DNA from: an uncultured Gemmatimonadaceae bacterium
GTDB lineage: Bacteria; Gemmatimonadota; Gemmatimonadetes; Gemmatimonadales; Gemmatimonadaceae
Assembly (NCBI GenBank): GCA_963790305.1
Contig: CAWBOC010000009.1
Span: forward strand, 1 to 64,000
Reading direction: 5' to 3'
Length of the DNA stretch: 64,000 nt
Shown: positions 34,666 to 61,868 of the stretch, piece by piece
Numbering within the stretch: position 1 is the stretch's first letter
Layout of the letters: each line of letters opens with the position of its first letter
Notes under the pieces: generated by a model
Told to the model about the DNA's origin: nothing
Databases searched by the model: none
Seen by the model: the letters and a program-made list of their open reading frames with translations, nothing else
Translations under genes and position numbers: made by a program

Positions 34666-36642
34666 CGATCGCTCACGAGCCTGACGAGCGCCCCCTCACG
34701 AAGCATGGCGCCGGCGTTGGGCCACGTCGCGGATGCTGCTCCCGTCGCGGCACCCAGCTGAACGCGGAAGCCCGCGCGATGCAGCGTGCGAACCGCTTCC
34801 CGGAGCTGCATGCCGCGAACGTTAGGCACCGCTCGCGAAGCCTTCCCCCCTCCCGACAGGGCAGCCGCCCGAGCGTTGCCCGCCAGCGGCAGATCGACCA
34901 CGTGCCTCGGGAGCTGCTCCTCGACGACCCGCTCGGCCTCGCCAAGGCCCTCCGCGTGCGGACCTGCCTTCGCGGCTGCCTCGAGCGACTCTCTCGATGC
35001 CAGCGCACGCCGATCGAGCGCAGCGTCGCGGGCCGCGATGGCCGCTTCGAGGACGGCGCGCGTCACCGGCGCAGCGGTCTGGCCGCCGTAATACGCGCCG
35101 GTGGGGCGGTCGATCTTCACCAACACGACGTATTGTGGTGCGTCGGCGGGAAAGAAGCCGACGAAGGACGCCGTATACTCGCTCGCGGCATAGCGCCCTC
35201 CGCGAGCCACACGGGCCGTGCCCGTCTTCCCTGCCACGGAGAAGCTGCCCAACCCGGCGCCGCCACCGGTGCCCTCCTCGACCGCTCCGACGAGCATGCC
35301 GCGAACGGTGGCCGCGATCTCTTCGCTCATGACACGACGGACGACGCGGCGCTCGTGACGGAACCGAACGGTCCCATCGGGATCCCGGATCTCGCGCACG
35401 ATCGTCGGCTCGAGCAGCTCGCCTCCGTTGGCGATCGCGGCGTACGCGACAGCCAGCTGCACGGGCGTGACCGCGATCTCGTAGCCCATCGCGAGCGACG
35501 CGGGAGACATGCGCGTCCACTCGTCAGGGGTCATCAGCGTGCCGCCCGCCTCGGAGGGAAACGGGACGCCGGTGGGCGTACCGAACCCGAGATCGCGCAG
35601 CACTTCGTACTGCTCTCGCGGCGCGAGCCGGGAGCTGAACTTTGCGATGCCGATGTTGCTGGAGTGTCGGATGACATCGGTGAGCGTCATCGATGCTTCC
35701 GCGTGCACGTCGGTGATCGTGCGGCCCTCGAGCGTGTAGACCCCGTTCTCGGTGTCGATACGCTCGTCAGGCTTCGCGCGGCCGGTCGCGAGCAGGGCTC
35801 CGGCGAAGAATGGCTTGAGGGTGGAGCCGGGCTCGAAGGGAGCGCTCAGCGCCGGCACGCCGGAGAATGACCCATCGGTGCGATGACTGGCGAGCGCGCG
35901 CAGCTCCCCGGTATGCGGATCGAGAATGACGACGTCGCCCCCCGCCGCACCCATGCGCGCGACCGCATCGCGAAGCGCGCGCTCGGCGATGTCCTGGAGC
36001 TCCCGACTCAACGTCAACACGACTTGATGCCCTTGCACCGGCGCGCGGCCCGACTCGCCGGAGGAGCTCGCGCGGCGCCCACGCGCATCGCGCGCGACCA
36101 GCAACGTCCCTTCCTTGCCGCGCAGCAGCGAGTCGAGGGCAAGCTCGAGCCCGTCGATCGGCTGGTCGTCGGCGCCAACGCGTCCCACCACGCGGCGCAT
36201 GGCCTCGCCATGGGCATAGACGCGGTCGATCGCGACCTCGGTGTACACCCCGCGCATCGCGGTCACGTTCGAGGCATCGACTGGAAGGTAGCGACCCGGG
36301 AGCACCACCCATTTGCGTTTCGCGTCCGTCGCGCGCGCGACCCACGCGGGTGGCACGCCGAGCTTTCGCAGCGATTTGCCGAGGAGGCGTCCGATCACGA
36401 ACTTCCTGCGGTGCGATCGAGAGCTTCACCAGCTCGCGACTCTGCGCGAGGGGAACGCCGCGCGCATCGAGCAGCGCGCCGCGGGGCGCGGGAATCGCTT
36501 TCGCGCCGTAATGCTGTTTGTGCGCACGCGCGGCCCAGGCGCGACCTTCCCAGAGCTGGACCTGCGCGGCGCGGACGACGAGCAGCCCGGCGAACGCGCT
36601 GAGCGCGCCGTGTACGACCTGCGAGCGAGTGAGGCGGGGCAT
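34662..36642 (-). CDS. ftsI: Division transpeptidase PBP3 with C-terminal PASTA domain, frameshift near 36390
   Basis: SxxK 'GSTLK', SxN 'SSN', KTG 'GKTGT'. Confidence 0.93.
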
Positions 36643-36948
36643 CTACGTGCCGGAGCGGGGGGAGCGCGGAAGGATCACGACCTGCGTATCACTCGGGACT
36701 CGCATCCCGAGCCGCCGCTCGGCGATAGGCGCGAGCGTCGAGCGGCTGGCGGCCTCGCGAATCTCGTTCTCCAGTCGTGCCTGCTGCGCCTCGAGCTGGA
36801 CGACCTGCTGCTCGAGCGCGCGCAGGTCCGCCGCCTGCGAGATCCCCGCGGCCCTACGCCAGATGACGCCTGTGGCGATCAGAACGAAACCGAGGAGTCC
36901 GAGCGCGACGAGCGAGCGGCCTCGGAGCGCTATCCGGCGCTTCGCCAT
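36643..36948 (-). CDS. ftsL: FtsL-like cell division protein
   Basis: Basic N-terminus, one TM, coiled coil, 'IAERRLGM'; between rsmH and ftsI. Confidence 0.75.
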
Positions 36949-37886
36949 GCGCGCAGCCTCGCCGACCTCGCCCGCGGGTTTCTCCGCCACCTCGGCCGGG
37001 CTCGCCGTAGATGGGGCGCCGCGTGTACCAGCTCCCCCAGGGCGCGTCCGCGGCAGGTGCAGACGGGCTGGCGTCGGAGGGCACACGCACTCGCGTGCTC
37101 CAGTCGCGGAATGCGCCCTTCACAATGCGGTCCTCGCCCGAGTGGTACGCGATCACCGACAATTGATTCCGCCCGGCTCGAGGTGATCGCGGAGCGCCGG
37201 GAGCGCATGGGCGAACCCGCCCAGCTCGTCGTTGATCTCGATGCGGATGGCCTGAAAGAGACGGGCGAAGTCGGGCGGCCCCGAGCGCGGTCCGAGGGCG
37301 CCGCGAATGGCGCCCACGAGGTCATCGCTGATCGCGAAGGGACGATTGGCGCGGCGTCGGACGACCTCTCGCGCGAGGCGCGCGGCACGGCGCTCGTCTC
37401 CGTATTCGCGAAAGACGCGCAGCAGCTCCAGCTCCGCCGTTTCGTTGAGCCAATCGGCGGCGGTGAGCGGCGTGTCGTCGCCCATGCGCATGTCGAGGGG
37501 CGCGCCTTCCCGAAACGAGAAGCCGCGACGCGGATCATCCAGTTGATGCGAGGAGACGCCAAGGTCGAGCAGAATGCCGTCGAAGCGAGCGGGACCGAGC
37601 TCGGGGATGCGTCGAGGTCGGCGTAGTTGCCAAGGAGGGCGCGGAAGCGGGAGGACTGCTCGTACTGGTGCAAACGGGCACGCGCCGCGGCGATCGCCTC
37701 CGGATCCCGATCGAGCGCTGTGACTCGCGCGCCTTGCTCGAGCAGCAAGAGCGCGTGTCCACCTCCGCCCAGCGTTCCGTCGAGCACGTGCGCACTTCCA
37801 CGCAGGAGGTCAGAGACCTCCTTGGCGAGAACCGGCGCGTGGTATGCGCTCGCCCACCGCGACTCGTTCGTTCGCAACGCGGTCAT
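36930..37886 (-). CDS. rsmH: 16S rRNA m4C1402 methyltransferase, several frameshifts
   Basis: 'HAPVL', 'DGTLGGGGH', '[12 protein letters not shown]', '[11 protein letters not shown]'. Confidence 0.93.
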
Positions 37887-37914
37887 TCTAGCGGCGCATG
37901 GAGCGCAGGGTCAA
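37885..37914 (-). promoter_or_regulatory. Candidate sigma70 promoter of the dcw operon
   Basis: TTGACC-18 bp-TAGAAT immediately upstream of rsmH. Confidence 0.6.
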
Positions 37915-37984
37915 GCTACGCAGATCACAATCGGCACCACGAAAAACGCCGCGGCTTGGTGCTTGCTTGCACTCGCGACCACGA

Positions 37985-38891
37985 ATGCCCCGCACGGTCC
38001 GAAAAGAGCTCATGCTCATCATGCACGGCCAGCGCGCCGACGAACGACGCGCTGCGCCATCTGGTGTCGTGGGTGCGCGACAAAGGACATTCAGTCGATC
38101 CCCGCGTGACGTGGGAGAAGGGCGATGGCATTCGCTTCGCGCGCGAGGGCGCCACGCGTGGCGTCGACGCGGTCATCGCGGTGGGCGGCGATGGCACGAT
38201 CAACGAGGTGGTGAATGGGCTCGATGGCAGCGACGTTCCGCTGGGCATCGTCCCGCTCGGGACCGCCAACGACTTCGCGCGGCAAGTCGGCATCCCGGAT
38301 GATGTCGATCACGCGATGGATGTTGTGCTGCAGCACCGTCCCCGCACGATCGACACCGCGGAACTGAATGGGCGACGGTTTCTCAACGTCTCGAGTGGCG
38401 GCGTAGCGGCGGAGGCGACCGCGGAAACGCCCACCGAGGCCAAGGAGCAGCTCGGCCCTCTCGCCTATGCGATCACCGGCGTTCGGAAGCTGGCCGATCT
38501 CCAGCCGCGCCGGGCGCACATCACCGGTCCCGGCCTCGATCTCAACTGCGAGTTTCTCATCTTCGCCGTCGGAAATGCACGCAGCACCGGCGGTGGCGCG
38601 CGCATCACGCCGCGCGCCTTGGTGACCGATGGCTTGATCGACATTTGCATCGTCGAGGCGATGCCCCGCGCCGACTTCGCGAAGCTCCTCATGCGCATCA
38701 AGAAAGGCGAGCACCTCGGCGAGGCGCGCGTGCGATATCTCCAGCTTCCATCGGTCACGATCGCCGCGGACGGGCCGGTGACGGTGAACGTGGATGGCGA
38801 GTCCTCGGAGGCGACGACGCTCACCTATCGCGCCCGACCGAAGGACCTCCGGATTCATGTTCCGCATTTGCCGGAGGAGGCGCAGGAGTAA
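37985..38891 (+). CDS. Diacylglycerol/lipid kinase (YegS/DagK family), early frameshift
   Basis: 'GGDGTINEVVNG', 'PLGTANDFAR', 'NVDGE'. Confidence 0.9.
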
Positions 38892-38952
38892 TGACAAAGC
38901 GGCCCGACACCGGAGTGGTGGCGGGCCGTCTTCGAACCAACTGCCTTGCCCC

Positions 38953-40681
38953 CTATCCGCGGCTGCCCTTGCAGATAGTTCTTTTTCTGCCCTTCAACCG
39001 CTCGCGTGTACTGCGGAATCGCGTTGAGCAGCTGCGTCGAGGCTTCTTGCCTGCACCTGCGCGCCGCTGCGGCAGGTGAATCATCGCCGTCACGAACGAA
39101 TCCTCGGCGAGCTGTGCCAGCTCGCAGCTCTTCGCCTTCTGGTTCTCACGTGCCGCCTGATCGCCGACGCTGAACGCCGAGGCGCCGAGCAGGAAGCTGA
39201 TCGTGGGATTCGGGGCGATCGAGTCGGCCTGCGTCAGGAGACGCACCGCTTCCTGATAGTCCGCGCGCGTTTGCGACTGTCTCGCCGCGCGGAACTTCTT
39301 GTTCGACTCGACGAGCATCAACTGCCCAACGAGGTTCTTGTCCTCGCCGGCTGCGACGGCTCGCTTCGCCGACGCAAATGCGCTGTCGGTCTGGCCGAGG
39401 TCGACGAGCACCTGCGCTCGACCGAACCACCCGTGCTCGACGTTCGGATTGATGCTCAGTGGCGCGATCGATTGCGGTCAGCGACTGCTGAAGCTGGCCA
39501 GCGCTGCGAAGCATTCTGGCCGTACGTGGACCAGAGTGCGGCGTTGTTGGGAAACTTCGCCACGCCGCGCGCGAGCGTTTCGGCTGCCTTCTGTGGCTGA
39601 CTATCGGAGTCGTATGCGACCGCGAGACGGAGGAAGAAGGCGGTGTCCGCCGACGCGGAAGTATCGACACGCGCGAGGTCTTCGCCGGTCTTCGTGGCGC
39701 CCTTCCAGTCCTTCGATGCGAGCTGGATGAGGAAGAGGAGGTTCGTCAGAGCGCGGATCGCCGGGGTTCTGCTCGACCGCCTGCTCGATAATCGGCTTGG
39801 CGATTTCCGGCCGGCCGCTGGCCGCGATCTCGTTCACGACTTCCGAGACGAGCTTCGCGTCGTTCGGGTAGAACCGAATGAGGCGACCCCACGTCTGCAC
39901 TGACTTGTCGACCTGATTGGCCGCCTTGTAGGCGAGACCGAGCTGCTCCAGCGCCGGACGGCTCATCGAGTCGACGGCGAGCACGGCTTCGAGCACCGGA
40001 ATGATCGAATCCGGCGGGCCTTTCTGCGTGGTCAGCGCGCGCGCAAGGCACACGCGCGCCATCGTCGCCTGCGGGTACTCGGTGAGCGCGGTGCGGGCGG
40101 CGGTGGCGGCGCCGGCGCGCGTTGCCGTCCCGGAGAGCGTTCTCGCAGCCGCGGACATCATCGAGCTGCTTGCGCGCTTCCTGGATCGACGCGACCACCG
40201 CTCGCGCGGCGTCCTCGACCTTGGCGGCCTCTGCAGATGGCAGCGGCTGTACCATCGCGTTGTCGCGCGTGAGCACCATGCGCGTATCGAGACGATAGCC
40301 GGCTGGCGTACGCGTCACGCTGCCCTCGAGGTACTCGTCGCCGCGAAGCTGCGCGGCGAGGAGACGCGCGGTAATCGGGTCGGGGGCCTCGTCAGGCGGA
40401 AACCCGGAGCCCTGAAGAATCGCCTCGACATCAGCTCGCGGGATGACGTACATGTCGCGAATGCGATATGCCGTCGACAACCGCGAGCGGATGGCGTCGG
40501 CCGCCTGGACGGCGACCTTCTTGTCCGCCGACTTGAGCGGCAGCACGGGAAAACGAGGGGCATCGGCGGGAGGCGCGACCGGACGGCGCTGCGCCTCGAG
40601 CGTCGACACCTCGGTCGCGCCCAGCGCGGCGACGATGCCGATCATGGTCGTCGCCCCACGAACCAATGGCTTCACTGTCAT
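38953..40681 (-). CDS. Exported TPR-repeat protein, multiple frameshifts
   Basis: GGAGG RBS, signal peptide 'MTVKPLVRG..LEAQ', TPR-like helices in ORFs 39601-40161 and 38953-39411. Confidence 0.7.
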
Positions 40682-40749
40682 AACCTCCAAGACGTTAGCT
40701 CCTACTACCCGGTTTGCCGCACGGGGGTCCTCAAACGGGCCCGCGGGCA

Positions 40750-42120: not shown

Positions 42121-43017
42121 GCCGTGGCGCGCGACCGCGAGAGCGAGCCTCCACCCTCGACGTGCTTCAGCATCTCTCCGCAGCGCTTTCCCCATGGATT
42201 GAACTTGTTCGTGCGATGTCCGTCGCGCCACGCATCCATGGCCGCGTCCTTCTGCTCATCGAACCAGAGCGCGCGGCCGAGCTCGAAGTACGCCTCGACG
42301 AGATTCGGGCCGATTTGCAGCGTCTTCTTGAAGAAGGTCTGCGCATCCTCGTACATCTCGCGCTCGAGATACACGAGACCGAGGTAGAAGTGCGCGTACA
42401 GCGTCGCCTTCCGGTCGTTGTCGAGACGGATGGCCTTCGACAGATGCTCGATCGCCTCACCGAAGATGCGCTTCTTGAGGCAAATGTAGCCGACGTTGAT
42501 GCGCGCGAGCGCGTTGGCCGGCTCGCGCATCAGCACCTTCTGGAAGTTCAAGAGCGCGTCGTCGTACTTCTCCTGGAGCATCTGCGCCCATCCCAACAGG
42601 GACTCCGACTGCGGATCGTCGGGCGCGAGCTGCAGCGCACGCGTCAGTGCCTTCTCGGCGCCGTCGTACTCCCCGAGGGAGATGAGGCTCCATCCCTTCT
42701 CGATGAACGTCGAAGCGCCGAGGTGGTCCGCCATGGGCTTCGGACGCTCCGGAGCGAACTGTGGGGCGGCGCCGGGCGAGGTCGACGTCGCGCTCACCGG
42801 GGCCGCCGCCGCCTGCGAGGACTTCCACTTCTCGACGAGCCGCTTTACGTCGTCCTTGAGCGTCGAGAGCTCCGCGATCTGCGCTTCGACCTGCTTGAAG
42901 AGCGAGACAATGTCGCCCTTGAGCGCTTCGCGCTCAGCGGGCGTCGACGCCGCGTCGAGGCGCGCGTTGATGCGCCGCATAACGGGACCGCAAATCGCCA
43001 GCCCCGCCGTCAGGCAT
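42117..43017 (-). CDS. Coiled-coil plus TPR protein
   Basis: N-terminal coiled coil; TPRs from 'FIEKGWSLISLGEYDGAEKALTRALQLAP'; likely ATG 43017 with an early frameshift. Confidence 0.85.
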
Positions 43018-43489
43018 TGTGGGTCGCTCCATCCGCCGCACGCTCGAGCACGAGGCGCTCGTCGGTCGTCAGCAGCCTCGTCACCTCGAGGAAGACGATG
43101 AGGCGATCATTGCGACGCACCACACCGCGCAGGAACTCGGCGGAGAGGCCGCGAAAGAGCGGCGGTGGTGGCGCCAACTCGTCCGACGTCGGGCTGGCGA
43201 CCTCGAGGACGGCGTCCACGATGGCGCCGATCCAGTCGTTCCCCACCGAGAAGACGAGAATGCGCGACTCCGGCCGTGGCTCGATGCTCTCGAGGCCAAA
43301 GCGCAGACGCAGATCGATCACCGGGATGATCCGGCCTCGATACTCGATGACTCCGTCCACCCATTCCGGCACGTTGGGAATGGGCGTCGGCGGCTGGTAG
43401 CGGAGCACGCGCTCCACCGAATAGATGTCGGCGGCGAACAAGTCATCGCCAAGCCGGAAGGTAACGAGCTGCTGTGCGACCGCGGTCAT
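43010..43489 (-). CDS. cheW: CheW adaptor
   Basis: 'QLVTFRLGDDLFA', 'IPNVPEWVDGVIEYRGRIIPVIDLR', 'GAIVDAV'. Confidence 0.92.
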   Translation of the reverse strand: MTAVAQQLVTFRLGDDLFAADIYSVERVLRYQPPTPIPNVPEWVDGVIEYRGRIIPVIDLRLRFGLESIEPRPESRILVFSVGNDWIGAIVDAVLEVASPTSDELAPPPPLFRGLSAEFLRGVVRRNDRLIVFLEVTRLLTTDERLVLERAADGATHNA

Positions 43490-44144
43490 ACCGCCTCCGT
43501 GAGCTGATCCGCCAAACACGCCAGCGCCAGCGACTCGGCGTCGATGAGCGCGAGAAGATCGGCCCCGCGACGGATGACCCCGAGAAGCACGTTGTCATCG
43601 TTGTCGGGGATCGGTGCCCGTCGAACCGCCGCGCCATCGATCGTGAGCACATCCTCGACGTCGTCGACCGCGAGGCCCAGCCGCTTCTCGCGCGATCGCA
43701 GAACGAGCACCGCCGCGGCATCGCGTCCAAGCGCAACGCGCAGCACGCGCTCGGGGGAGTAGATCGGAACGAGCCGCTCCCGGAGCTCGAACACACCCAG
43801 CAGGTGGTCGGGCATCTCCGGCAGATGATGGACCGAGGGCAGCTCGATGGCCTCCTCGACCGCCCCGAGATCGACGGCGAACCGCTCATCTCCGACCCGA
43901 AACACCAGCGTGTCGGACAGCCCTTCCCGCGCTGCGATGGCCTCCCGCAGTGGACGTCGGGTCGGCCCCGATGGCTCTTGATCTTCGAACCGGCGCAGGC
44001 GCCAGCGGCGCTGGAAGCGCTAGAGGCGCTAAAGGCGCTCGGACAGCGTCGGAGCCTCACTGGTGCGTCACTGCCGTCGCGCTCCGCTTGCGCAGGCGTG
44101 CGGCGTGAGCGCTTTCGGCTGTCCGGCTTCTTCTTCTTCGTCAT
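43486..44144 (-). CDS. cheW: CheW-like protein with a low-complexity N-terminal extension, frameshifted
   Basis: 'VFRVGDERFAVDL', 'LPEMPDHLLGVFELRERLVPI', 'GLAVDDVEDV'; start uncertain. Confidence 0.75.
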
Positions 44145-44227
44145 AGCTCGGTACTCGTTGGAGCGCACTGGCTCCAGAGCGGTTAAGTCGAGCGCCTTCA
44201 GCGCCGCCTAGCGCCTCTAGCGCCTCT
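44007..44227. repeat. Two inverted arms of the CTAGAGGCG 9-mer, ~150 bp apart
   Basis: 44007-44041 (..gcgctagaggcgctaaaggcgctcg) versus 44189-44227 (cgagcgccttcagcg..ctagcgcctctagcgcctc). Confidence 0.8.
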
Positions 44228-44258
44228 GACTGAACGGACAGTTCACGCGGAGGCGGCG

Positions 44259-45341
44259 TCACATCACCCCGCTACCCCTGAAGGTCAGCAAATCGGTGAC
44301 GGCGCCGGCGATCGCCGGCAGCGGAAGCACCTGGTCGATTCCCCCCGCCTGCAGCGCCGCGTGCGGCATTCCGTAGATGATCGACGTCGCCTTGTCTTGA
44401 GCGACACCAAGCCCGCCGGCTTCGTGAATGGCCCGCATCCCTTCCGCCCCATCGCGTCCCATGCCTGTCAGCACCACGCCGATCGCCGCTGCGCCGAAGA
44501 CCTCGGCGACGGACTTGAAGAGCGGGTCCGCCGACGGACGCACTCCCCACACCGGCGGTGAGCTGTCGAGCGAGATGACCGGAACTCCGCCCTGAACGCG
44601 CACGCGCATGTGCTGGCCGCCTGGAGCGAGATACACCCGATTGTGCACGACGCGCTCACCATCGCACGCCTCGGCCACGGTGAGTCGCGAGTGAAGGTCG
44701 AGGCGATCGGCCAGGCTCTTCGTAAAGCCTGCGGGCATGTGCTGCACTATGAGCACGGCGGCATCGAGGTCGGGCCGGAGCGCGGGAATGAGATCGGCCA
44801 GGGCCCGCGGTCCGCCGGTGGACGCGGCGATCGCCACGGCACGCGTGGCCCAGGAGCCACCGCCAGCGATGGCCCGTCCAGCCATCGGCGGGTCGGCGCG
44901 GCGAGAGAGCATGGGCATGCCGCGCAGATTCACTTCGCGCGACGCGCGGAGTGCGTCGAGCAGCCGATCGCGAACGCTATCGAGATCGAGTGAGATCGGC
45001 CCGCTCGGCTTCTTGACGAAATCGACCGCCCCGAGCTCGAGGGCCCGGATGGCCGGATCGCGTCCCGACTCGGCCGCCGCGCCGCTCAGCATCACCACCG
45101 GGCGCGGTGTCTCGCTCATGATGTAGCCCAGCGCACCGATGCCATCGAGCTCGGGCATCTCGATGTCCAGCGTGACGAGATCGGGATCGAGGGCGTGAAT
45201 CTTCTTCAGCGCTTCGAGGCCGTTGCGCGCCGTCCCGACGACGCGGAACTCCGCCGAGCCATCGATCATCTCGGAGACGAGCTTGCGCATGAAGGCGCTG
45301 TCGTCGACGACGAGGACCGTCGGCAGCCTAGAGGATGACAT
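44259..45341 (-). CDS. cheB: Chemotaxis methylesterase with receiver domain
   Basis: REC 'VVDDS..LDIEMP'; catalytic 'ASTGGP', 'QHMP', 'GMGRDG'. Confidence 0.97.
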   Translation of the reverse strand: MSSSRLPTVLVVDDSAFMRKLVSEMIDGSAEFRVVGTARNGLEALKKIHALDPDLVTLDIEMPELDGIGALGYIMSETPRPVVMLSGAAAESGRDPAIRALELGAVDFVKKPSGPISLDLDSVRDRLLDALRASREVNLRGMPMLSRRADPPMAGRAIAGGGSWATRAVAIAASTGGPRALADLIPALRPDLDAAVLIVQHMPAGFTKSLADRLDLHSRLTVAEACDGERVVHNRVYLAPGGQHMRVRVQGGVPVISLDSSPPVWGVRPSADPLFKSVAEVFGAAAIGVVLTGMGRDGAEGMRAIHEAGGLGVAQDKATSIIYGMPHAALQAGGIDQVLPLPAIAGAVTDLLTFRGSGVM

Positions 45342-45819
45342 GCCCGGCCCTCAGCGATTTCACCGTGAGGCGGCCATCGCGGACGTCGAAGTACACGCTG
45401 CGACCGTAATCCCCACCGACTTCCTGCGCGACGATCGGAATGCCCGCGTGCTCGAGTGCGGCCCGCGTCGCGACCACGTTCCTCTCCCCGATTTGAAGCC
45501 CCGTCGCCGACAGCAGCGAGGTGAACATGCTCGCGCCGCCGACGATCTTGGCCCGCATGCGCCCCGTGCGCGCGCCTAACGCCTGCATGCGCTCGCACAG
45601 GAGCGGCACCGCCGTCGACGGGAACTTCGCCCGGTTGGACCGGTCCTGCGACATGCCAGTGCTCGGCAGGAGCACGTGCGCCAGTCCGCCGATGCGCGCT
45701 TCCGGGTCGTGCAGCGCGATCGCCACGCAGGAGCCCAGCCCCACCGTGACGAGGAGTGTGCCGCCATTGGCGACGGCAAAGTCCGCCACCTTCACGCGGA
45801 TCTCGGTCGGGGCGCTCAC
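45328..45819 (-). CDS. cheD: Chemoreceptor glutamine deamidase
   Basis: 'TVGLGSCVAI', 'LAHVLLP', 'AKIVGGASMF', 'IGERNV'. Confidence 0.95.
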   Translation of the reverse strand: MSAPTEIRVKVADFAVANGGTLLVTVGLGSCVAIALHDPEARIGGLAHVLLPSTGMSQDRSNRAKFPSTAVPLLCERMQALGARTGRMRAKIVGGASMFTSLLSATGLQIGERNVVATRAALEHAGIPIVAQEVGGDYGRSVYFDVRDGRLTVKSLRAGHVIL

Positions 45820-46640
45820 GGCTTCCGGAAGATGCGCTCGCGCGGATTCACCGGCACGAACAGGTTTCGCGTGGGACCGAGGAGCGTTTCCACTTTTCCG
45901 AGGACGAGAAACCCGCCCGGCACGAGCGCGTCGAAAAACCGCTGGAAGAGCAGCTCCTGGGAAACGCGGTCGAAGTAGATGATGACGTTGCGACAGGTGA
46001 TGAGGTCGAGCCCCCCCGACGGTGTCGGCTCGTGAAGCAGGTCGCGTCGCTCGAACTGCACCATCGCCTTTACGCGTGGATCGAGCGAGTGGGGCGGCTT
46101 GGGCGTGAAGTACCGGCGTCGGATCGCCGGCGGCGTGTCGGCGAAGGCGTCCTCGCCGAAGGTGCCACGCTCCGCCGCCTTGAGACTCAGGCGATCAATG
46201 TCGGTCCCGAGGATCATGATGCGGGACAGCGCTTTCTCATCCTTGCGTTGCATCGCCTCGCGGTGCAGCAGGATCGCGAGCGAGTAGGGCTCCTCTCCCG
46301 ACGCGCAGCCCGCGCTCCAGCACCGAATGTGCTCGTCGCTCGCTGGCCACAGGGCGGGAATCACATCCTCGGCGATGGCGGCGAACGTCTCCCAGTTTCG
46401 AAAAAGCTTGGTGACGTTGATGGTGAGCGCATCGAGCAGGAGCTCGTACTCGCGCGCGTCGCCATCGAGGATCGCGGCGTAGTCGCGATAGGTATGGACA
46501 CCGCGGGCACGCATACGCACCGCGATGCGGCGACGAAGGCATTTTTCCTTGTAGCTGGCGCACCCGAAGCCGCGCTCACGCGAGATCTTCTCCGTGAGCG
46601 CGGCGAACTCCGCGTCGGCCGGCTGCTGCTGGACGCTCAC
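45816..46640 (-). CDS. cheR: Chemotaxis methyltransferase
   Basis: 'TINVTKLFR', 'WSAGCASGEEPYS', 'GTDID', 'CRNVIIYF'. Confidence 0.96.
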   Translation of the reverse strand: MSVQQQPADAEFAALTEKISRERGFGCASYKEKCLRRRIAVRMRARGVHTYRDYAAILDGDAREYELLLDALTINVTKLFRNWETFAAIAEDVIPALWPASDEHIRCWSAGCASGEEPYSLAILLHREAMQRKDEKALSRIMILGTDIDRLSLKAAERGTFGEDAFADTPPAIRRRYFTPKPPHSLDPRVKAMVQFERRDLLHEPTPSGGLDLITCRNVIIYFDRVSQELLFQRFFDALVPGGFLVLGKVETLLGPTRNLFVPVNPRERIFRKP

Positions 46641-48256
46641 ATCACCGTCCGGACGAGGTCGAGATTGGTGCGAATGAGCGCGTTCTCGGGATCCAGCTCG
46701 AGCGCTTTCTCCCAGCACTCGAGCGCCGCCTCGCGCTCGTGCTTGCGATAGCGAATGTTGCCCATCTTGAACCACACGTCGTGCCCCTGCCCCGGCGCCA
46801 GCCGTGCGGCACGCTCGTACGATTCCAGTGCGCGATCGTACTGCCCAGCGCGATAGTGGCAGTCGCCGAGGTTCTTGTGCAGGTGCGGCAGCCCGCTGTC
46901 GTCGCCGAGGCCGGTTTCAGCCGCCTCCACTGCCTGACGATACTGCCCCGCGCGCTCGAGGAGCGTCGCCTTGAGATTGTGGAGCGCCGCCACGTGCGGA
47001 TGCACGGTGAGCGCCTCGTCCACCAGCGCCGAGGCGCGCTCGAAGTCGCCGCCGAGCGCCGCGGCCAGGGCGGCGTAATGGAACCAGGGGGCCGTCGGTT
47101 TGCGCTTGCCGAACAGCGGCCGCGCCGCCGCGAGGAGCGCGTCACCCTCGTCGAGCTGCCCGCGCCTGAGGGCCACGATGCCAAGCGCGATCTGCACGCG
47201 AGGGTCCGCCCCGCCCCCGCGACTCACCGCTTCCTCGAGCGCGATCTGCGCGTCATCGAGCCGCCCGGTCCGCTCGAGCACGAAGGCGAGGTTGTGGAAG
47301 ACCGCCGCCGGAGCGTTCGGTTGGCTTGCCGCCTCGCGCAACGACTCCTCGGCCTGCGGCAGGCGTTCGTTACGCAGGTGCACGAGCGCCATGTAGAAGA
47401 GCGCCTGCCCGTCGTTCGGCCGCAGCTCGGCGACACGTCGGAACTCGCGCGTGGCTTCCTCGTACATGCCGGTCTTGTAGAAGGCGATGCCGAGGTTGCG
47501 GTGCTCCTCGACGCGCGCCTCCCGGACGACGGCATCGGACGCTTTCGACTTGCCGATGCGGTGCAGAAAGCCGGCGGTCGCGAGACCGTAGAGCGCCTTG
47601 CCGACCTCGAACTCGCCGAGGCCCGACTCATCGACGAGTGCAGCGACATCGCGCCGCCCGTCGACCAGCGGGATGAGCTGCTCCTGCTCCATCGTGAGCT
47701 CGGCATCACTGGCGGCCAGCTTGGTGCGATCGAGCTCGAAGATGATGTCGAAGCTCGGGATCTTCTTCTCGATGAGGCTCCACTCGTCGACACGCCGTGC
47801 CCCCTCGAGCAGCAACGACTCCGGGTTGATCGACACCAGAAAGTCGCGCTCGTCAGGCAGCACGTCGGCCTCGAAGCTGAACGTGCCCTGCGTCCAGGTG
47901 AAGAGGAAATACACGGCCTCCTCGATCTGGAGACGGATGTACCGGTGCAGCTCCTCGCGCGTGAGGATCTTCTGCTCGATGAGGATCTCACCGAGCCGCT
48001 TGTCGCGCTGGCGACTCTGGGCCTGGATCGCGGAGTCGAGCTCCTGCTGCGTGATGAGCCCGTTCTTGACGAGAATGTCGCCGAGGCGATCGCGGCGGTT
48101 CACGATCGACGCGTACGAGATACGACCGCGCGAGAAGTACACCGTGCCGAAGCTGCTGCGGTCCGCCACGCTCAGACATCCCGTCTTCTGCCCCATGGCG
48201 AGCAGCTGGAGGACGTCCGGAAGGCTGGCTTCGCGAAGACTGCCTTTGATCGCCAT
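46637..48256 (-). CDS. DUF4388 (PatA-N-like) plus TPR protein
   Basis: 'IKGSLREASLPDVLQLL..KTGCL', 'RLGDILV', 'WTQGTFSF', 'LLLEGARRVDEW'; C-terminal TPRs. Confidence 0.85.
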   Translation of the reverse strand: MAIKGSLREASLPDVLQLLAMGQKTGCLSVADRSSFGTVYFSRGRISYASIVNRRDRLGDILVKNGLITQQELDSAIQAQSRQRDKRLGEILIEQKILTREELHRYIRLQIEEAVYFLFTWTQGTFSFEADVLPDERDFLVSINPESLLLEGARRVDEWSLIEKKIPSFDIIFELDRTKLAASDAELTMEQEQLIPLVDGRRDVAALVDESGLGEFEVGKALYGLATAGFLHRIGKSKASDAVVREARVEEHRNLGIAFYKTGMYEEATREFRRVAELRPNDGQALFYMALVHLRNERLPQAEESLREAASQPNAPAAVFHNLAFVLERTGRLDDAQIALEEAVSRGGGADPRVQIALGIVALRRGQLDEGDALLAAARPLFGKRKPTAPWFHYAALAAALGGDFERASALVDEALTVHPHVAALHNLKATLLERAGQYRQAVEAAETGLGDDSGLPHLHKNLGDCHYRAGQYDRALESYERAARLAPGQGHDVWFKMGNIRYRKHEREAALECWEKALELDPENALIRTNLDLVRTVM

Positions 48257-50170
48257 CAGCGGAGATCCTCAATGATGCGCCCGGCAAGGTCGGGCCAATC
48301 CCACACGGTCTTTTCGCGGTCGCCGAAGTGCGTGTCGCCTGACGGCGTGGCGCGATGCACCGGCGTTGACCGGCGCACCGATGTCACCCGCGCGACATCA
48401 GCGCTCGTAAGGCGCCGGTTGTCATTGCCCGCCATCTCGGCCAGCCGTTCGCCCACGCGAAGCACGTCGCGGGCGGTTGGCATCTCCAGCGCAGCCGCCG
48501 CGTGCAGCACCTCGGGAGCGGGCTCCACCCCTGCGGCAGCGAGTGCGCGGGCGATGAGCTTTTCGCGCAGCAGTCGGTCCGGTGGCTGGATCTCGACGAC
48601 GAGACCACCCTCGAACCGCGAGCGCAGCCGTTCGTCCATCTCGGTCAGCGTGCGCGGCGCGCGCGAGGAGGTGAGGACGACCTGCTTCCCCGCCTCCATG
48701 AGGGTGTTGAAGAGATGAAAAAACTCGTCCTGCGTTCGCTCCGTGCCAGCGAACATCTCGATCTGATCGATCAGCAACGCGTCCACACGGCGGTAGCGTC
48801 CACGCCAGGTCTCGATCGCGCTGTCCTGAAGCGCCGCGATCAGCTCGTTCACGAAGTCGCTGGCGTTCACGCAGGCGATCGTCATCGCGCCGCCACTCGC
48901 GCCGGCGAGCTCGTTCCCGATCGCATGCAGGAGATGCGTCTTCCCCACGCCGGGACTTCCGTGGATGACCAGCGGGTTGTACCGGCGGCCCGGCTCCTCG
49001 ACGATCGCGTCCGCGGCATGTACCGCCAGCTGGTTGGAGGGACCGACCTCGAACTCGGCACGAAGGAGCGACCCGTCGGGCGGCGGGGGCGGGGCCGAGT
49101 CGGCGCGAAGTGTCTCCGCCAATCGCTCGAGATCCTCGATCGCGTCCGGGTCGCGAAACTGCACCGAGCCGCGCTGCGTGGGATCGAGCGCGACGATCTC
49201 CTGCTCCAGTGCGCGCAGCCGCGTGACCTTCTGCTCGAACTGCTGAAGAAGCGCGTCGGGATCCGCGGTATCGGGGCTCTGAAGCGCGCGCTCGAGCGCG
49301 GCTGTTCGGTACCCCTGCGTCCGCCATTCCGCTGTCAACTCGACGAGCCTCACTCGACGCGCATCGACATGCTGCGCGACGGCGACCGCCAGGCCCGAGA
49401 GGAAGCTTTCGTATTCTCCGCTCTTGGGGGCGAGACGCTGCGGTCCGCTGCCGTTGCCGCGATCGCCCAGCAGGCCCTGAATGCTCTCCACGGTCACATC
49501 GCCTTCGCCCAGTGTCTGAAACGCGATCAACCGGTTGATGGCGCCATGCATCTCGCGCACGTTGGCGAAGACGACGCGTGCAACCTCCTCGACGACGCCG
49601 GGTGGGAACGTCACGTCGCGCTCGTCGCACCGGCGCCGCAGGATCGCCACGCGCGTTTCGTAGTCGGGCGCGCCCATGTCGACGAGCAAGCCGCCGGAGA
49701 AGCGCGTCATCAGGCGGTCGTCGAGATCGGCGATCTCCGCCGGCGGCCGATCGCTGGTGAGCACGATCTGCTTGCCGCTCCTCTGCAACACGTTGAACAG
49801 CCGCAGCAGCTCGCTTTGCGTCTCCTGCCGTCCGGTGAGAAACTGCACATCGTCGAGGAGCAGGACATCGAGCGCCGCAAAACGCTGGCGGAACGCGTCC
49901 GTCTCCCCGCGCGTCACCGCCTGATGCAGAATGCTCGACGAGCTCATCGGTCGTGACGTACTCGGCCTGGAGATCGGGCTGCAGCTGCTTCGCGAGCTGT
50001 CCGATGGCGGACAGCAGGTGCGTCTTGCCGAGCCCCGATGCCGCGTAAATGAACAACGGGTTGTAGGCCGCTCCCGGCGACTGCGCGACTGCGCGCGCCG
50101 CCGAGACGGCGAGGCGGTTGGCCGCGCCGACGACGAAGGTGTCGAAGCGAGAGCGGACGTCGAGGGCCAT
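48256..50170 (-). CDS. Protein with two tandem DnaA-type AAA+ domains and no DnaA domain I or IV; frameshift near 49935
   Basis: 'FDTFVVGAANRLA..YNPLFIYAASGLGKTHLL..LLLDDVQF..RLMTRF..NVREMHG' and 'FEVGPSNQLA..YNPLVIHGSPGVGKTHLL..LLIDQIEM..TQDEFFHLFN..RLRSRF'. Confidence 0.92.
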
Positions 50171-50173
50171 GCG

Positions 50174-50782
50174 CTACCGGCTCCCGGCCTCGGCCGGCGA
50201 CGCCAGCCGCTTGAGGACGAGCTCCGCGATGCCCCGCAGCGTCTCGAAGACCCCGATGCCGTGCAGCGCGTCGGCAGCGAAACGTGGCACGCCGCGGAAG
50301 TTCAGCGCCTCATCGAGCTCATCCACCGACATGATCATGTCTCGCGGCAGATCCTGCTTGTTGTATTGCAGAACGAGCGGGACCGTCCGAGGGTCCATGC
50401 CCTGGTTGCCAAGGTTGGCGTGCAGGTCCTGGAGACTCTCGATGTTTTCGTCCAGCTGTCGCGACTGACTGTCGGCGACGAAGACCACACCGTCCGCGCC
50501 CTGAAGGACGAGCTTGCGCGTCGCCTGGTAGTAGACCTGTCCCGGGACGGTGTAGAGCTGCAGCCGCGTCGTGAAGCCGGAGATCGTTCCGAGATCGAGC
50601 GGGAGGAAATCGAAGAAGAGCGTGCGATCGGTCTGCGTGGCGAGCGACACCATCTTGCCCTTCCGCTCGTCAGGCACCTGGCCGTAGACGTAATGCAGAT
50701 TCGTCGTCTTCCCCGACCGCCCAGGGCCGTAGTAGACGATCTTGCACGTGATCTCGCGGGACGCGTAGTTGACGAGAGACAC
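50174..50782 (-). CDS. mglA: MglA-family small GTPase
   Basis: 'REITCKIVYYGPGRSGKTTNL', 'TDRTLFFDFLP', 'TVPGQ', 'NKQDL'; closely resembles Myxococcus MglA. Confidence 0.95.
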   Translation of the reverse strand: MSLVNYASREITCKIVYYGPGRSGKTTNLHYVYGQVPDERKGKMVSLATQTDRTLFFDFLPLDLGTISGFTTRLQLYTVPGQVYYQATRKLVLQGADGVVFVADSQSRQLDENIESLQDLHANLGNQGMDPRTVPLVLQYNKQDLPRDMIMSVDELDEALNFRGVPRFAADALHGIGVFETLRGIAELVLKRLASPAEAGSR

Positions 50783-50787
50783 GATCG

Positions 50788-51285
50788 TCAGGACGAGGGG
50801 GTGATGTTGCGCCGTCCGGGCGCGCGCCCGAACAGCATCGCGAGGTTGCGATTCAGCTCGACCTCGAAGTTCTCGTCGAGCATGGGGGCGGCATCGGGGA
50901 CCTGCACCTTCGACTGCAGGAGGGCCGTGCGCAGCTCCTCGAAGTATAGTTGCACGAGACCGAGCGAGCTCTGCTCATCGAACACGGTGAGGAGCAGACA
51001 TGTCCCACGTGGCGTCGCCGCTTCCGCGAGGTAGAGTCGCCGCTTGGCACCCGCGTGAAAGACATCGCGAAAGCCTTTTCCGTCAAGTGTGCGACCGAGC
51101 TCGCGCACCGTCGCGTAAATGCCGGCCGCGAGCGCCGCCGCCGACATGACGTCGACCGCGCGCGAGAACCCGCTCTGTCCGAGCACCTGCCCGCTCGGAA
51201 AAATGAGCAGCGCGAACGTGACACGGGCATCGTCGACGAAACGCTTCAATGGCGCCTCGACCCAGGGCTCGGCGACGCTGATCAT
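50788..51285 (-). CDS. mglB: MglB-like roadblock/LC7 protein
   Basis: 'AALAAGIYATVRELG', 'LLTVFDEQSSLGLV', amphipathic C-terminal helix ending 'LAMLFG'; adjacent to mglA. Confidence 0.8.
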   Translation of the reverse strand: MISVAEPWVEAPLKRFVDDARVTFALLIFPSGQVLGQSGFSRAVDVMSAAALAAGIYATVRELGRTLDGKGFRDVFHAGAKRRLYLAEAATPRGTCLLLTVFDEQSSLGLVQLYFEELRTALLQSKVQVPDAAPMLDENFEVELNRNLAMLFGRAPGRRNITPSS

Positions 51286-51632
51286 ATGACGAGCCGCTCC
51301 AGCGCCTTGAGCATCTCCATCCGCATGAGGCCGATATTCGCGCGCGCGTCGGCGACGATCACGAGCACCATGTCGTTCTTCCCCGCGGCGCACACGTGCC
51401 CTTCCGTCGCGCGGAGGCGAAGGAACGTGACGCCTCCGAGTCCGGCGGCATCCGCCGACAGGCGCGCCTTGCGATAGAGGGACGCCGCGAGCGCCGCGAA
51501 CGCCGGGCCCTTCATCCCCACGTGCAGCGTCGCGTCGATGATGACGCCGTCGGTCTCGTCGACGAGCAGGCTGCCACGCACGCCGCGTTGGCGCGTGAGG
51601 GCCGCGATGATGGGCGTCAGATTGGTCTTCAT
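51282..51632 (-). CDS. Roadblock/LC7 protein
   Basis: 'GVRGSLLVDETDGVII', 'FAALAASL', 'ANIGLMRMEM'. Confidence 0.82.
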   Translation of the reverse strand: MKTNLTPIIAALTRQRGVRGSLLVDETDGVIIDATLHVGMKGPAFAALAASLYRKARLSADAAGLGGVTFLRLRATEGHVCAAGKNDMVLVIVADARANIGLMRMEMLKALERLVI

Positions 51633-52468
51633 CCGCCCCCCTTCTTCAGCCAGGTGCCCGCGCGCTCGACGCACCGGTCGAGCACGCGATGCACGAGTCC
51701 GAGGGGCATGGCCTTCGACGCGGCGACCAACAGCAACGCATCATCGCGCATGGGGGCCATCGCTACGACGGCGGCGTCGGTCTCGACGGTGAGCGACGAC
51801 CAGTCACCGAGTCCGAGGTGACGCATGGCCCGACGCGCCTCGTCACTGACCCCGCTGAGCTCGGCACCCACTTCCTGCGCGACGTCGCGGCCGTCCTGCG
51901 TCAGGTACGTGCCGGCCATGACGAGCCCGGTGGCGTCGAGGAGGAGCGCGGTGTGCTCGCCGCCTTCGGTGATCTCGTCGAAGAGGCTGAGGTGCTCAGG
52001 GTGCTCAGGGTGCTCAGGGGAACGGCGGTCCGCACCCTGAGCACCCTGAGCACCCTGAGCACCCTCTCGCAAATGCACCCGCACCATGGCGAGCGCCGTC
52101 GCCACCGTCTCGTCCTCGCCATCGAGCTCCGACGCTTCGCTCAAGTAGGTCTGCGCTTCGACGTACTTGCCTTGCTTGAACAGGACGTACCCCATTCCCT
52201 TGCGGGCGCCGAGGTGGGCCGGGGCGATGCGCCGGACCATGTCCCACTCGTCGAAGGCGCGCTCGAGCTCGCCGCGGTCGACGGCAATGCGCGCGAGCAA
52301 ATCGTGCGACTCGGCGTCGTGCGGATGCCGCTCGAGGCCGCGGAGCGCGACCTTGAGCGCGAGATCGAGCTGCCCGCCCTTCCGCAGCGCTTCACCCAGC
52401 TGCAGGTAGACGGGGCTCGCGGGGTCGCGGGCCAACTCCTCGCTCAGGCGGCGAATGTCGTCAGCCAT
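51629..52468 (-). CDS. TPR plus roadblock/LC7 fusion protein
   Basis: N-terminal TPRs; C-terminal 'ALLLDATGLVMAG..LGLGDW..MPLGLV'. Confidence 0.8.
   Translation of the reverse strand: MADDIRRLSEELARDPASPVYLQLGEALRKGGQLDLALKVALRGLERHPHDAESHDLLARIAVDRGELERAFDEWDMVRRIAPAHLGARKGMGYVLFKQGKYVEAQTYLSEASELDGEDETVATALAMVRVHLREGAQGAQGAQGADRRSPEHPEHPEHLSLFDEITEGGEHTALLLDATGLVMAGTYLTQDGRDVAQEVGAELSGVSDEARRAMRHLGLGDWSSLTVETDAAVVAMAPMRDDALLLVAASKAMPLGLVHRVLDRCVERAGTWLKKGGG
51991..52063. repeat. In-frame palindrome of the 9-mer GGTGCTCAG; 29-bp perfect stem
   Basis: 51991-52019 is the exact reverse complement of 52035-52063; 15-nt loop. Confidence 0.97.
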
Positions 52469-60804: not shown

Positions 60805-61335
60805 TCAGGCGCGTTCTACGGAGCTTGCGACACTCGAGGCCGCGGCGCGGGCGCGCGCGCGATCTTCCGCCCACAGGGACCAGGCCAGCATGAAGGCTCC
60901 GATGCTGACCGCCATGTCGGCCACGTTGAACGTCGGCCAGCGCTGCATGCCGACACCGATGTCGATGAAGTCGACGACGCCCATGGGATGCCGAATCCGG
61001 TCGATCACGTTGCCGATCGCGCCGGCGCACACGAGCCCGATCGACGCGATGCGGAACCGGTCGGGGTCAGGCGTCTGCCGATAGAGCCGCCCGAGAATGA
61101 CCAGCGCAACGATCGCGAGGGCGAGAAAGAGCCAGCGTGAGTACGGACCTAACGATATACCGAACGCGGCGCCGGTGTTGTACACGAGCGTGAGACGGAG
61201 CCAGTCCCCGATGACTTCCCGCGGAATCCCGCGCGGCGCCAGCGAGGCTTCGGCCCAGGCCTTCGTCACCACATCGAGCACGATGATGGTCACGATGAGC
61301 CCCCAGAAGAGAACTCGCCGGCTGCGCGCGCTCAT
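60805..61335 (-). CDS. lspA: Lipoprotein signal peptidase II (downstream copy)
   Basis: 'NTGAAFG', 'GAIGNVIDR', 'VVDFI', 'FNVAD'. Confidence 0.95.
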   Translation of the reverse strand: MSARSRRVLFWGLIVTIIVLDVVTKAWAEASLAPRGIPREVIGDWLRLTLVYNTGAAFGISLGPYSRWLFLALAIVALVILGRLYRQTPDPDRFRIASIGLVCAGAIGNVIDRIRHPMGVVDFIDIGVGMQRWPTFNVADMAVSIGAFMLAWSLWAEDRARARAAASSVASSVERA

Positions 61336-61868
61336 CGGGAAGCGCCCTGGGACTCGGTGACGACCGGCACGGCCGCGACCGAATGCTTCCGGTCTTCCTG
61401 CCAGAGAATCCAGGCGAGAAGCACCGCGCCGAAAGTGATCGCGACGTCGGCCACGTTGAACGTATAGAACCGCGCGCTACCGATGCCGAGGTCGATGAAA
61501 TCCACGACGCCGCGCGAGGAGCGTACGCGATCCAGCATGTTGCCGAGCGCGCCCGCCGAGACGAGCGCCAGCGCCGCGGCGCGCGCGCGATCCCGCAGGT
61601 CGGTCGCGCGGTAGAGCTGACCGAGGATGACCAGGGCGACCGCGGCGAGCGCGATGAAGATCACCCGCGAGTACGGCCCGACCCCGATGCCGAACGACGC
61701 CCCGGGGTTGTACGCGAGCGTCAGCTGCACCCAATCGCCCACCACCTCGTGCGGAACGTATTCCGGGACGAGGTGCGTGACGGCGAGCGATTTGGTGGCG
61801 ACATCGAGCGCGAGAACGACCAGGAGCAGTGGCCAGAACAGCGTGGCCTTAGGACTGCTTCTTCCCAT
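61332..61868 (-). CDS. lspA: Lipoprotein signal peptidase II (upstream copy)
   Basis: 'NPGASFG', 'GALGNMLDR', 'VVDFI', 'FNVAD'. Confidence 0.95.
   Translation of the reverse strand: MGRSSPKATLFWPLLLVVLALDVATKSLAVTHLVPEYVPHEVVGDWVQLTLAYNPGASFGIGVGPYSRVIFIALAAVALVILGQLYRATDLRDRARAAALALVSAGALGNMLDRVRSSRGVVDFIDLGIGSARFYTFNVADVAITFGAVLLAWILWQEDRKHSVAAVPVVTESQGASR

Follow-up and report, generated by a model that had tools for sequence, protein, structure and literature searches.

To our knowledge, almost the only known roles of DnaA domain III are to drive the initiation of replication and to power its regulator Hda. (Hda also carries an N-terminal sliding-clamp-binding motif.) Here, we describe a conserved and previously undescribed protein family that is derived from DnaA domain III. 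The member that we studied is encoded on the minus strand, at 48256-50170, of a 64,000-nucleotide stretch of DNA from an uncultured soil Gemmatimonadaceae bacterium (GenBank assembly GCA_963790305.1, contig CAWBOC010000009.1, positions 1 to 64,000). We will call the whole stretch the window and the gene the tandem gene. From its N-terminus to its C-terminus, the protein comprises a DnaA domain-III module, a three-helix domain, a second DnaA domain-III module, a disordered linker, and a Trp-rich tail. We put the probability at roughly 50% that this protein is an ATP switch or scaffold subunit of a signalling complex of MglA, Che, and PATAN proteins, and no replication initiator.

A tandem DnaA-like protein and its gene cluster

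The window copy is split by a frameshift (see below). As an intact stand-in, we used the ortholog P0003 from the congener G004. P0003 has 637 amino acids and is 94% identical to the window copy over its 563-residue part and 98.8% identical over the first 80 residues. The protein begins 8 residues ahead of the domain-III signature, with the N-terminus MALDVRSRFDTFVVG. As the initial annotation had expected, P0003 matches the Bac_DnaA family (PF00308) twice (E = 8.2e-111). Also as proposed there, domain I and the C-terminal helix-turn-helix are missing: neither DnaA_N (PF11638) nor Bac_DnaA_C (PF08299) gave a match in P0003 even at E <= 1, and the same scan detected Bac_DnaA_C at 7.8e-24 in the genome's own DnaA. 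That canonical DnaA (482 amino acids, with DnaA_N, Bac_DnaA, and Bac_DnaA_C) is encoded separately, on contig C5, with dnaN 219 nucleotides downstream, so the annotation's expectation of a separate dnaA next to dnaN was borne out.

In the AlphaFold2 (AF2) model of P0003, the mean predicted local distance difference test (pLDDT) is 83.1 and the predicted template modelling score (pTM) is 0.45. Module 1 takes up residues 1-235, followed by a disordered stretch (236-257), helices (252-357), module 2 (about 368-597), a second disordered stretch (598-625, with pLDDT below 50 when folded alone), and a short helix (628-636). The top Foldseek matches are to DnaA domain III: 8bv3_A (TMt 0.95, root-mean-square deviation (rmsd) 1.7 Å, 41% identity) and 2z4r_A (TMt 0.91). 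The helical domain, when modelled alone with AF2, has a pLDDT of 86.8. Its best match among 48,161 PDB chains has a Z score of 6.4 (EzrA, 4uy3; rmsd 2.9 Å, 109 residues aligned), and because such a score reflects a common arrangement for a helical bundle, we do not assign this domain to a fold.

The tandem protein reaches 488.6 bits with the DnaA equivalog TIGR00362 (cut-off 343.9), but this total is summed from two domain-III stretches (profile positions ~104-338), and the cut-off is exceeded because the module is doubled. This explains why some family members are named "chromosomal replication initiator protein" in the databases; others are named "DnaA/Hda family protein" or "DnaA ATPase domain-containing protein". 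Scores for the Hda models are all under their cut-offs: 160.7 versus 194.8 bits for TIGR03420, 74.4 versus 268 for NF005982, and 53.5 versus 300 for NF051883. Since the doubled module passes the DnaA equivalog, pipelines that find origins or count dnaA genes in Gemmatimonadota can be misled.

The features of the tandem gene and its immediate neighbours are as follows.

49931-50170, minus strand: 5' piece in frame A with codons 1-80, which carries module 1 from its beginning up to and including Walker A (SGLGKT); PF00308, 6.7e-26
49930-49931, minus strand: frameshift site with an extra T; the minus strand reads GAGCATTCTG and the congeners read GAGCATCTG
49465-49929, minus strand: remainder of module 1 in frame B, with Walker B (LLLDD), sensor I (TSDR), box VII (DRLMTRF), sensor II (NVRE), and the lid
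49057-49422, minus strand: family-specific domain of three long helices between the modules (AF2 model; profile A2)
48379-49068, minus strand: module 2, with Walker A (GSPGVGKT), Walker B (LLIDQ), TSSR, box VII (ERLRSRF), and the sensor II arginine in TARD; PF00308, 1.5e-51
48259-48336, minus strand: Trp-rich tail at the C-terminus (EKTVWDWPDLAGRIIEDLR), preceded by a disordered linker and predicted to dock on TPR
46637-48256, minus strand: PATAN (DUF4388) protein of 539 amino acids with a MshEN-type cyclic di-GMP (c-di-GMP) motif and TPR; predicted docking partner
50174-50782, minus strand: mglA, a Ras-like polarity GTPase that matches MglA from M. xanthus and T. thermophilus
50788-51393, minus strand: MglB-like Roadblock/LC7 protein (Robl_LC7, 3.5e-7)

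All of the motifs that the initial annotation had quoted are present (AASGLGKT, LLLDD, NVRE, GSPGVGKT, LLIDQ, TARD, RLxxRF twice, and the end ...FGDREKTVWDWPDLAGRIIEDLR). The spacing given there is also correct: 3 nucleotides separate the mglA stop from the ATG of the tandem gene, and the start of the PATAN/DUF4388 gene overlaps the tandem stop by 1 nucleotide.

The tandem gene belongs to a cluster on one strand that begins with genes for CheW, CheY, CheA, and CheC/X, followed by a TPR protein (901 amino acids) and a PATAN-TPR protein (421 amino acids). Next are a TPR-Roadblock protein (279 amino acids), a Roadblock protein (130 amino acids), the MglB-like protein, MglA, the tandem ATPase, and the 539-residue PATAN-TPR protein. 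The cluster ends with CheR, CheD, and CheB, and past a gap there is another CheW along with a TPR gene. MglA matches the proteins from M. xanthus (5ymx, 5e-75) and T. thermophilus (3t12, 1.6e-63). The MglB-like protein scores 32.3 bits with the MglB model NF052242, which is under the cut-off.

The order MglB, MglA, tandem ATPase, PATAN-TPR is kept in 19 of 19 relatives' loci. In five more distant members of the class (described below), the PATAN-TPR ortholog is directly downstream in all five, but MglA is upstream in only three. The PATAN-TPR protein is thus the invariant partner. Overall, its ortholog is directly downstream in 24/24 loci examined.

The PATAN-TPR protein contains DUF4388 (6.7e-39) and TPR families from Pfam. 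Two tandem MshEN-type motifs, RLGxxL(I/V)xxG...L...Q, are inserted in the PATAN domain at residues 54-110. This protein exceeds the cut-off of NF053729 (52.7 versus 38 bits) and matches MshE (5htl) at 6.2e-5, and all of the 14 orthologs aligned share the RLGxxL...Q residues. Judging from these motifs, the PATAN-TPR scaffold probably binds c-di-GMP. In the literature that we searched, we found nothing that describes MshEN-type motifs within a PATAN domain, and nothing that connects MglA or PATAN to a DnaA-like ATPase. A survey of MglA noted PATAN proteins near mglA; its passages on AAA proteins and ATPases name no DnaA-type ATPase beside mglA, and its supplementary table S2 may list one (PMC4316618).

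The gene for the TPR-Roadblock protein (51629-52468, minus strand) contains an 86-nucleotide palindrome with a perfect stem (51985-52070), each arm of which is made up of three GGTGCTCAG-type 9-mers. Its predicted folding energy, when taken as DNA, is -44.7 kcal/mol (z = -10.85). The palindrome is in frame, in the linker that joins the TPR and Roadblock parts of the protein, and encodes GAQGAQGAQG...PEHPEHPEH. Copies are present at about 9 other places in the genome, on both strands, and at many more in the congeners G004 and G008; at this site, the congeners differ by indels of 9, 17, and 3 nucleotides. It looks like an element of the repetitive extragenic palindrome (REP) or miniature inverted-repeat transposable element (MITE) type that is tolerated in a coding linker. 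Short elements are also found at ~43997-44042 and 44188-44228, in the region (43976-44230) between cheW (43010-43519) and cheB (44259-45341). They recur dozens of times in G004 and G008, at 84-95% identity and on both strands, often in tandem 27-nucleotide steps, and this region is rich in indels between congeners. Elsewhere in the window are tandem genes for signal peptidase II (Peptidase_A8, LspA) at 60805-61335 and 61332-62072 (1.7e-37 and 3.5e-32). The second LspA gene has an N-terminal extension of ~80 amino acids.

Conservation of the family, its modules, and its tail

In a search of 1.84 billion representatives, we found many full-length clusters of 640-690 amino acids, down to 32% identity. 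The named sources of the family are Gemmatimonadaceae, Gemmatimonadales, or Gemmatimonadota, and no others. To count members without counting DnaA itself, we used a helical-domain profile (A2) that the window copy matches at 2.3e-53. Of the 401 genomes that we sampled from the phylum, 272 match A2, in 104 of 147 genera, and the other 129 gave no match. (Four unpublished genomes, G015, G086, G125, and G204, all match; without them, the count is 268/397.) Among the matches listed, all are from the same class as the window or closer. By taxonomic family, leaving out genome G000, A2 matches 73/93 genomes in f1, 161/166 in f2, 5/5 in f3, 5/7 in f4, 2/2 in f5, 21/70 in f7, and 4/4 in f8. It matches none of the genomes in f6 (0/30), f9 (0/4), f10 (0/13), f11 (0/3), or f12 (0/3).

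We examined five distant members from the class along with 12 kb of context. The members from f8 and f5 are single-module proteins of ~395 amino acids, with one module, the helical domain, and the tail. The member from f4 has a lid-less module 2 whose Walker B reads "DG", and in the two members from f7, module 2 has no intact P-loop or Walker B. Thus module 2 is missing from two of the five and decayed in three, while module 1, the helical domain, and the Trp-rich tail are present in all five. The RLxxR of module 2 is retained in all three of the distant two-module forms. The family's constant core is thus a catalytically complete module 1, the helical domain, and a flexible linker that ends in the Trp-rich tail. 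What varies is module 2, a second DnaA-type module that is inserted ahead of the tail in the order that includes the window.

As a rough count of the tail, a strict regular expression matches 25 of 68 representatives of 560-760 amino acids, and a relaxed one matches 46 of 68. Several of the 22 that the relaxed expression misses show the tail motif by eye, and at least 2 are ordinary DnaA with domain IV. We also came across long proteins with similar DnaA domain-III modules: P0165 (1876 amino acids), P0170 (1990 amino acids), P0260 (1248 amino acids, with 5 stretches), and P0162 (897 amino acids). These may be fusions or multi-module relatives.

To compare the two ATPase sites, we aligned 16 orthologs (alignment A1), which represent three taxonomic families within the order. 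(One row, L017, is from the unpublished G015, and we make no claim from L017 alone.) In module 1, the catalytic motifs are invariant in 16/16 rows: Walker A, D106 and D107 of Walker B, S139, D140, and R141 of sensor I, R152 and R156 of box VII, and N203 and R205 of sensor II. In module 2, the box VII arginines (R514 and R518) are invariant as well. The initial annotation described sensor II of module 2 as degenerate, which is mistaken: the arginine of TARD (R575) aligns with the arginine of NVRE and is invariant in all 16 rows.

The same annotation described one canonical and one altered ATPase site. This holds for the window, where LLIDQ is present, but not for the family. Walker B of module 2 ends in DQ in just 3 of the 16 rows, which are the window's closest relatives; 2 more rows from the same genus have DE and the other 11 have DD. 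Similarly, module 2 has TSSR instead of TSDR in this genus only. The asymmetry is therefore local decay of module 2 in this genus, and not the design of the family.

Other residues with roles in E. coli DnaA (ssDNA binding at the H/B positions, AID-1, and the arginine finger) can be compared by using the assignments in PMC10325909. Equivalents of K178, D235, R281, R285, and R334 (E. coli numbering) are retained in both modules. The modules differ at the H/B positions for binding single-stranded DNA (ssDNA) and at AID-1. Module 2 has I/V at 211, R at 245, and R at the AID-1 position 227 in 8/8 rows, and it retains the K243 equivalent as well. Module 1 has H/N at 211, E at 245, and A/Q/E at 227, also in 8/8 rows. 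In the canonical DnaA of the same organism, the residue that aligns with 245 is A.

In a quick maximum-likelihood tree of 55 domain-III rows (L017 was omitted), module 1 (support 100), module 2 (99), and DnaA from Gemmatimonadota (99) each form a clade, and the backbone is not resolved. E. coli Hda (branch length 4.43) and DnaC (branch length 10) are long rows. The stem of module 2 in this genus is also long (0.66, versus 0.19 for module 1). An approximately unbiased (AU) test with 37 rows did not reject a single clade of modules 1 and 2 (p = 0.379, log-likelihood difference (ΔlnL) 3.52). These sequences are compatible with an internal duplication of the modules.

In the tail, E619, K620, W623, W625, R631, and E634 are invariant in the 16 orthologs. 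Because the tail is invariant, is disordered when folded alone, and is encoded by a gene that overlaps the start of its TPR neighbour, we modelled the complex of the two. As inputs, we used the complete PATAN-TPR protein, with the 14 rows of alignment A3, and tail residues 588-637 (from A1). The complex score was 0.73 (0.59, 0.73, and 0.74 in separate runs), and the best of 3 controls scored 0.00. The mark for this score is attained by 116 of 157 solved complexes and by 2 of 215 mismatched pairs. The runs share at least 55% of their contacts, with a partner pLDDT of at least 52. In the modelled interface, the TPR groove (residues 261-494) holds residues 612-636 of the tail, and the contacts take in H321, N427, K461, N462, and D465, which are invariant in A3. 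This model supports binding of the tail to the PATAN-TPR neighbour.

The frameshift in the window copy

Although the initial annotation treated 48256-50170 as one continuous gene, it had crossed a frameshift silently: the 1915 nucleotides (3 x 638 + 1) are not a multiple of 3, and three-frame translation gives no single open reading frame (ORF). Instead, two overlapping ORFs lie in different frames of the minus strand. The ORF at 48422-50170 starts MALDVRSRFDTFVVG and is sensible only as far as ...DELVEH, and the ORF at 48256-49947 is sensible from ...LHQAVTRGETDAFRQRF through its end. Frame A (50170-49931) and frame B (49929-48256) join only if one T at 49930/49931 is skipped. On the minus strand, the break point lies within GAGCATTCTGCAT. 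Because of the extra T, the gene falls into a piece of 80 codons and an ORF of 563 codons; read across the break, the gene encodes a protein of 637 amino acids.

PF00308 appears as three pieces in the ORFs of the window, and a scan of the organism's own genome agrees. Positions 1-77 of the profile are matched by the 80-residue piece in frame A, positions 81-162 are matched in frame B, and a complete second copy is also in frame B. As a whole, the 563-residue ORF matches PF00308 at 3e-77, in 2 stretches.

We think that the extra T is probably a consensus error. The base is absent from 8/8 loci of the same genus, which read GAGCA-(T/G/A)CTG, with one base fewer. We also compared the public sequencing runs that are richest in words of this stretch; contigs over the site were found in two of these four runs, the two being from different studies, and neither of these near-identical contigs has the extra base. 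Their other differences from the window amount to 0 over 173 nucleotides and 1 over 315 nucleotides. Similar insertions affect neighbouring genes: the window has about 20 more single-base insertions relative to both G008 and G004 in 36394-40119. That stretch is either badly polished or decaying. Within or beside it, a 579-residue TPR gene (~38956-40699) is in 4 pieces and 3 frames, and a 408-residue DAGK/YegS-like lipid kinase gene (37663-38888) is broken into 2 frames; both are intact in G008.

Alternatively, the T could be genuine, so that this strain has a recent pseudogene with module 1 truncated after Walker A. We consider this unlikely. The base is present in the assembly, the best public run contains just 0.37 of the sampled words, and the family is dispensable in many lineages, including genera of the same taxonomic family (0/7 genomes in g12, 0/5 in g33, and 0/3 in g17). 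However, neither half of the gene has a further indel or stop. Protein identity to the G008 ortholog is 97.5% for the 5' piece (against residues 1-81) and 93.9% for the frame-B half. Across 44210-52000, where the DNA is 87% identical, the insertion at 49930 is the sole indel relative to G008 and G004. These observations, along with the two contigs from other studies and the insertions in neighbouring genes, argue for an artefact.

A programmed +1 frameshift is excluded: 19/19 relatives' loci read through in one frame, and 8/8 congeners are without the base.

A proposed function, its rivals, and known systems

The initial annotation proposed a DnaA fold that was repurposed as a nucleotide switch or filament scaffold. 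Much of this stands: the protein has no domain I or IV, the genome has a separate dnaA-dnaN pair, the synteny is fixed, and the modelled tail-TPR complex fits. Hydrolysis and assembly are the parts that we infer, as is the role in polarity. In the mechanism that we propose, the tail would dock in the concave TPR groove of the PATAN/MshEN-TPR protein that is encoded by the overlapping downstream gene. The ATPase would thereby be tethered to a probable c-di-GMP-binding scaffold, within a polarity and chemosensory complex of MglA/MglB and Che-type proteins. Module 1 would be the working ATPase, and module 2 would be a built-in partner, with the arginine finger as its conserved contribution. ATP on module 1, with its site completed by the box VII arginine of module 2 or of another copy, would switch the protein between assembled and free states, as in the head-to-tail contacts of DnaA, and hydrolysis would reset the switch. 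In this genus, where module 2 has lost the second Walker B acid and the sensor I aspartate, module 2 would bind ATP and hydrolyse it poorly. The full proposal (a DnaA-derived assembly switch with its tail in the PATAN TPR groove, acting with MglA/MglB, in which module 2 is becoming a pseudo-ATPase that donates an arginine finger) is more tentative, and we think it less likely than not to hold as a whole.

Several observations weigh against the reading as a signalling switch or scaffold. The absence of A2 from 129/401 genomes implies that the function is dispensable. With a pTM of 0.45, the model is a poor guide to how the two modules are placed relative to each other, so an arginine finger acting in cis is speculative. 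The alignments for the complex model were self-made, so its calibration holds only roughly, and a TPR domain with a C-terminal peptide is a well-known class of complex (with PEX5-type matches), so this likeness may explain part of the score. The contig depth at the frameshift site is only 2-3, so the extra T may be real in the sampled population. And the DnaA-type residues of module 2 at positions 211, 245, and 227 could mean that it has a role directed at nucleic acids or at DnaA.

Those residues are the starting point for two of the rival explanations. The protein might be a replication-linked modulator, either an Hda-like inactivator or a filament cap that acts with the true DnaA, and might thereby couple the polarity or chemosensory state to initiation. 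(The initial annotation had offered an Hda-like modulator that co-assembles with DnaA as an alternative, and we found no direct support for this.) Both modules do score as DnaA and not as generic AAA+ proteins, as seen with TIGR00362; both retain the five residues listed above; and no resolved branch of the tree sets either module apart from the diversity of DnaA. Also, an Hda-like modulator keeps some room because module 2 retains the DnaA-type arginine finger, AID, and H/B positions (R227, K243/R245, and the V211 type). But the best Hda model falls short of its cut-off, domains I and IV are absent, and in 24 loci the tandem gene is never beside dnaA or dnaN. Furthermore, the DnaA-like module 2 is missing or decayed in all five distant members, and the family is not found in 129 genomes that all need DnaA. 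We therefore view a replication modulator as improbable. We have greater doubts about a single-stranded nucleic-acid binder, in which module 2 would bring DNA or RNA to the PATAN-TPR complex, for instance in DNA uptake or in pilus-linked processes. The H/B positions are kept in all 8 rows of module 2, and the organism's own DnaA has A at 245. On the other hand, these positions are H/N and E in module 1, the single-module members hold only the module-1 type, and we saw no DNA-handling genes in the cluster.

The last rival, a component of an anti-phage or conflict system (an AAA+/STAND-like NTPase with TPR partners), strikes us as very improbable. There are weak matches, at the level of the P-loop, to nSTAND families, to mad8 from PADLOC (3.9e-8, 26 residues), and to AbiO. 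However, the PADLOC matches span the P-loop only, and neither the two PATAN-TPR proteins nor MglA have any PADLOC match. Also, the synteny shows vertical conservation throughout an order and includes Che and MglA genes of a housekeeping type, which is unlike a defence island.

If the signalling switch is correct, it would be a new class of switch that was built from the engine of the initiator, and its module 2 may still sense single-stranded DNA. The family is a natural system for learning what an initiator-clade AAA+ module can do outside of replication, and it would add a previously unrecognized player to the control of polarity by MglA and PATAN proteins. What is new here is the frameshift and its likely origin as an artefact, the limitation of LLIDQ to one genus, the single-module and decayed-module variants that define the core, the asymmetry of the modules at the H/B positions, and a tail-TPR complex that is supported by modelling.

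Among known systems, the MglA/MglB(-RomR) module of M. xanthus and T. thermophilus is the closest to the gene cluster: here too, MglA, an MglB-like Roadblock protein, PATAN proteins, and Che proteins (Frz-like) are encoded together. For the tail, the closest systems are the TPR receptors of C-terminal peptides, a known class that is typified by PEX5-PTS1. The predicted mode is the same, with a short C-terminal peptide that follows a flexible linker and lies in a TPR groove. Unlike PTS1, the peptide is Trp-rich (EKxVWxWP...RxIExLR), and its partner has PATAN and MshEN-type modules. The two-ring AAA+ unfoldases (p97/Cdc48/Rix7), which stack two classical-clade rings in one chain, are also among the Foldseek matches, with TM scores of only 0.25-0.37 and rmsd of 26-30 Å. 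By sequence, both modules of the tandem protein belong to the initiator clade.

Hda/HdaA (TIGR03420, NF051883) is likewise a homolog of DnaA domain III without the DNA-binding domain. The tandem protein differs from Hda in its architecture, in its signalling operon, and in scoring under the Hda cut-offs; E. coli Hda, which has a long branch, groups with neither module. Compared to DnaA itself (8BV3 and 8BTG from B. subtilis, 2Z4R from T. maritima, and 1L8Q, 2HCB, and 3R8F from A. aeolicus), each module is a full domain III (IIIa and lid), with Walker A and B, sensor I, box VII, and the sensor II arginine. Unlike DnaA, the tandem protein is without domains I, II, and IV; its module is doubled, with a novel three-helix domain in between and a Trp-rich peptide at the C-terminus; and its gene accompanies mglA, PATAN-TPR, and Che genes instead of dnaN. 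Throughout a bacterial class, domain III of DnaA, stripped of the parts that recognize DNA, is thus a constant member of a signalling operon.

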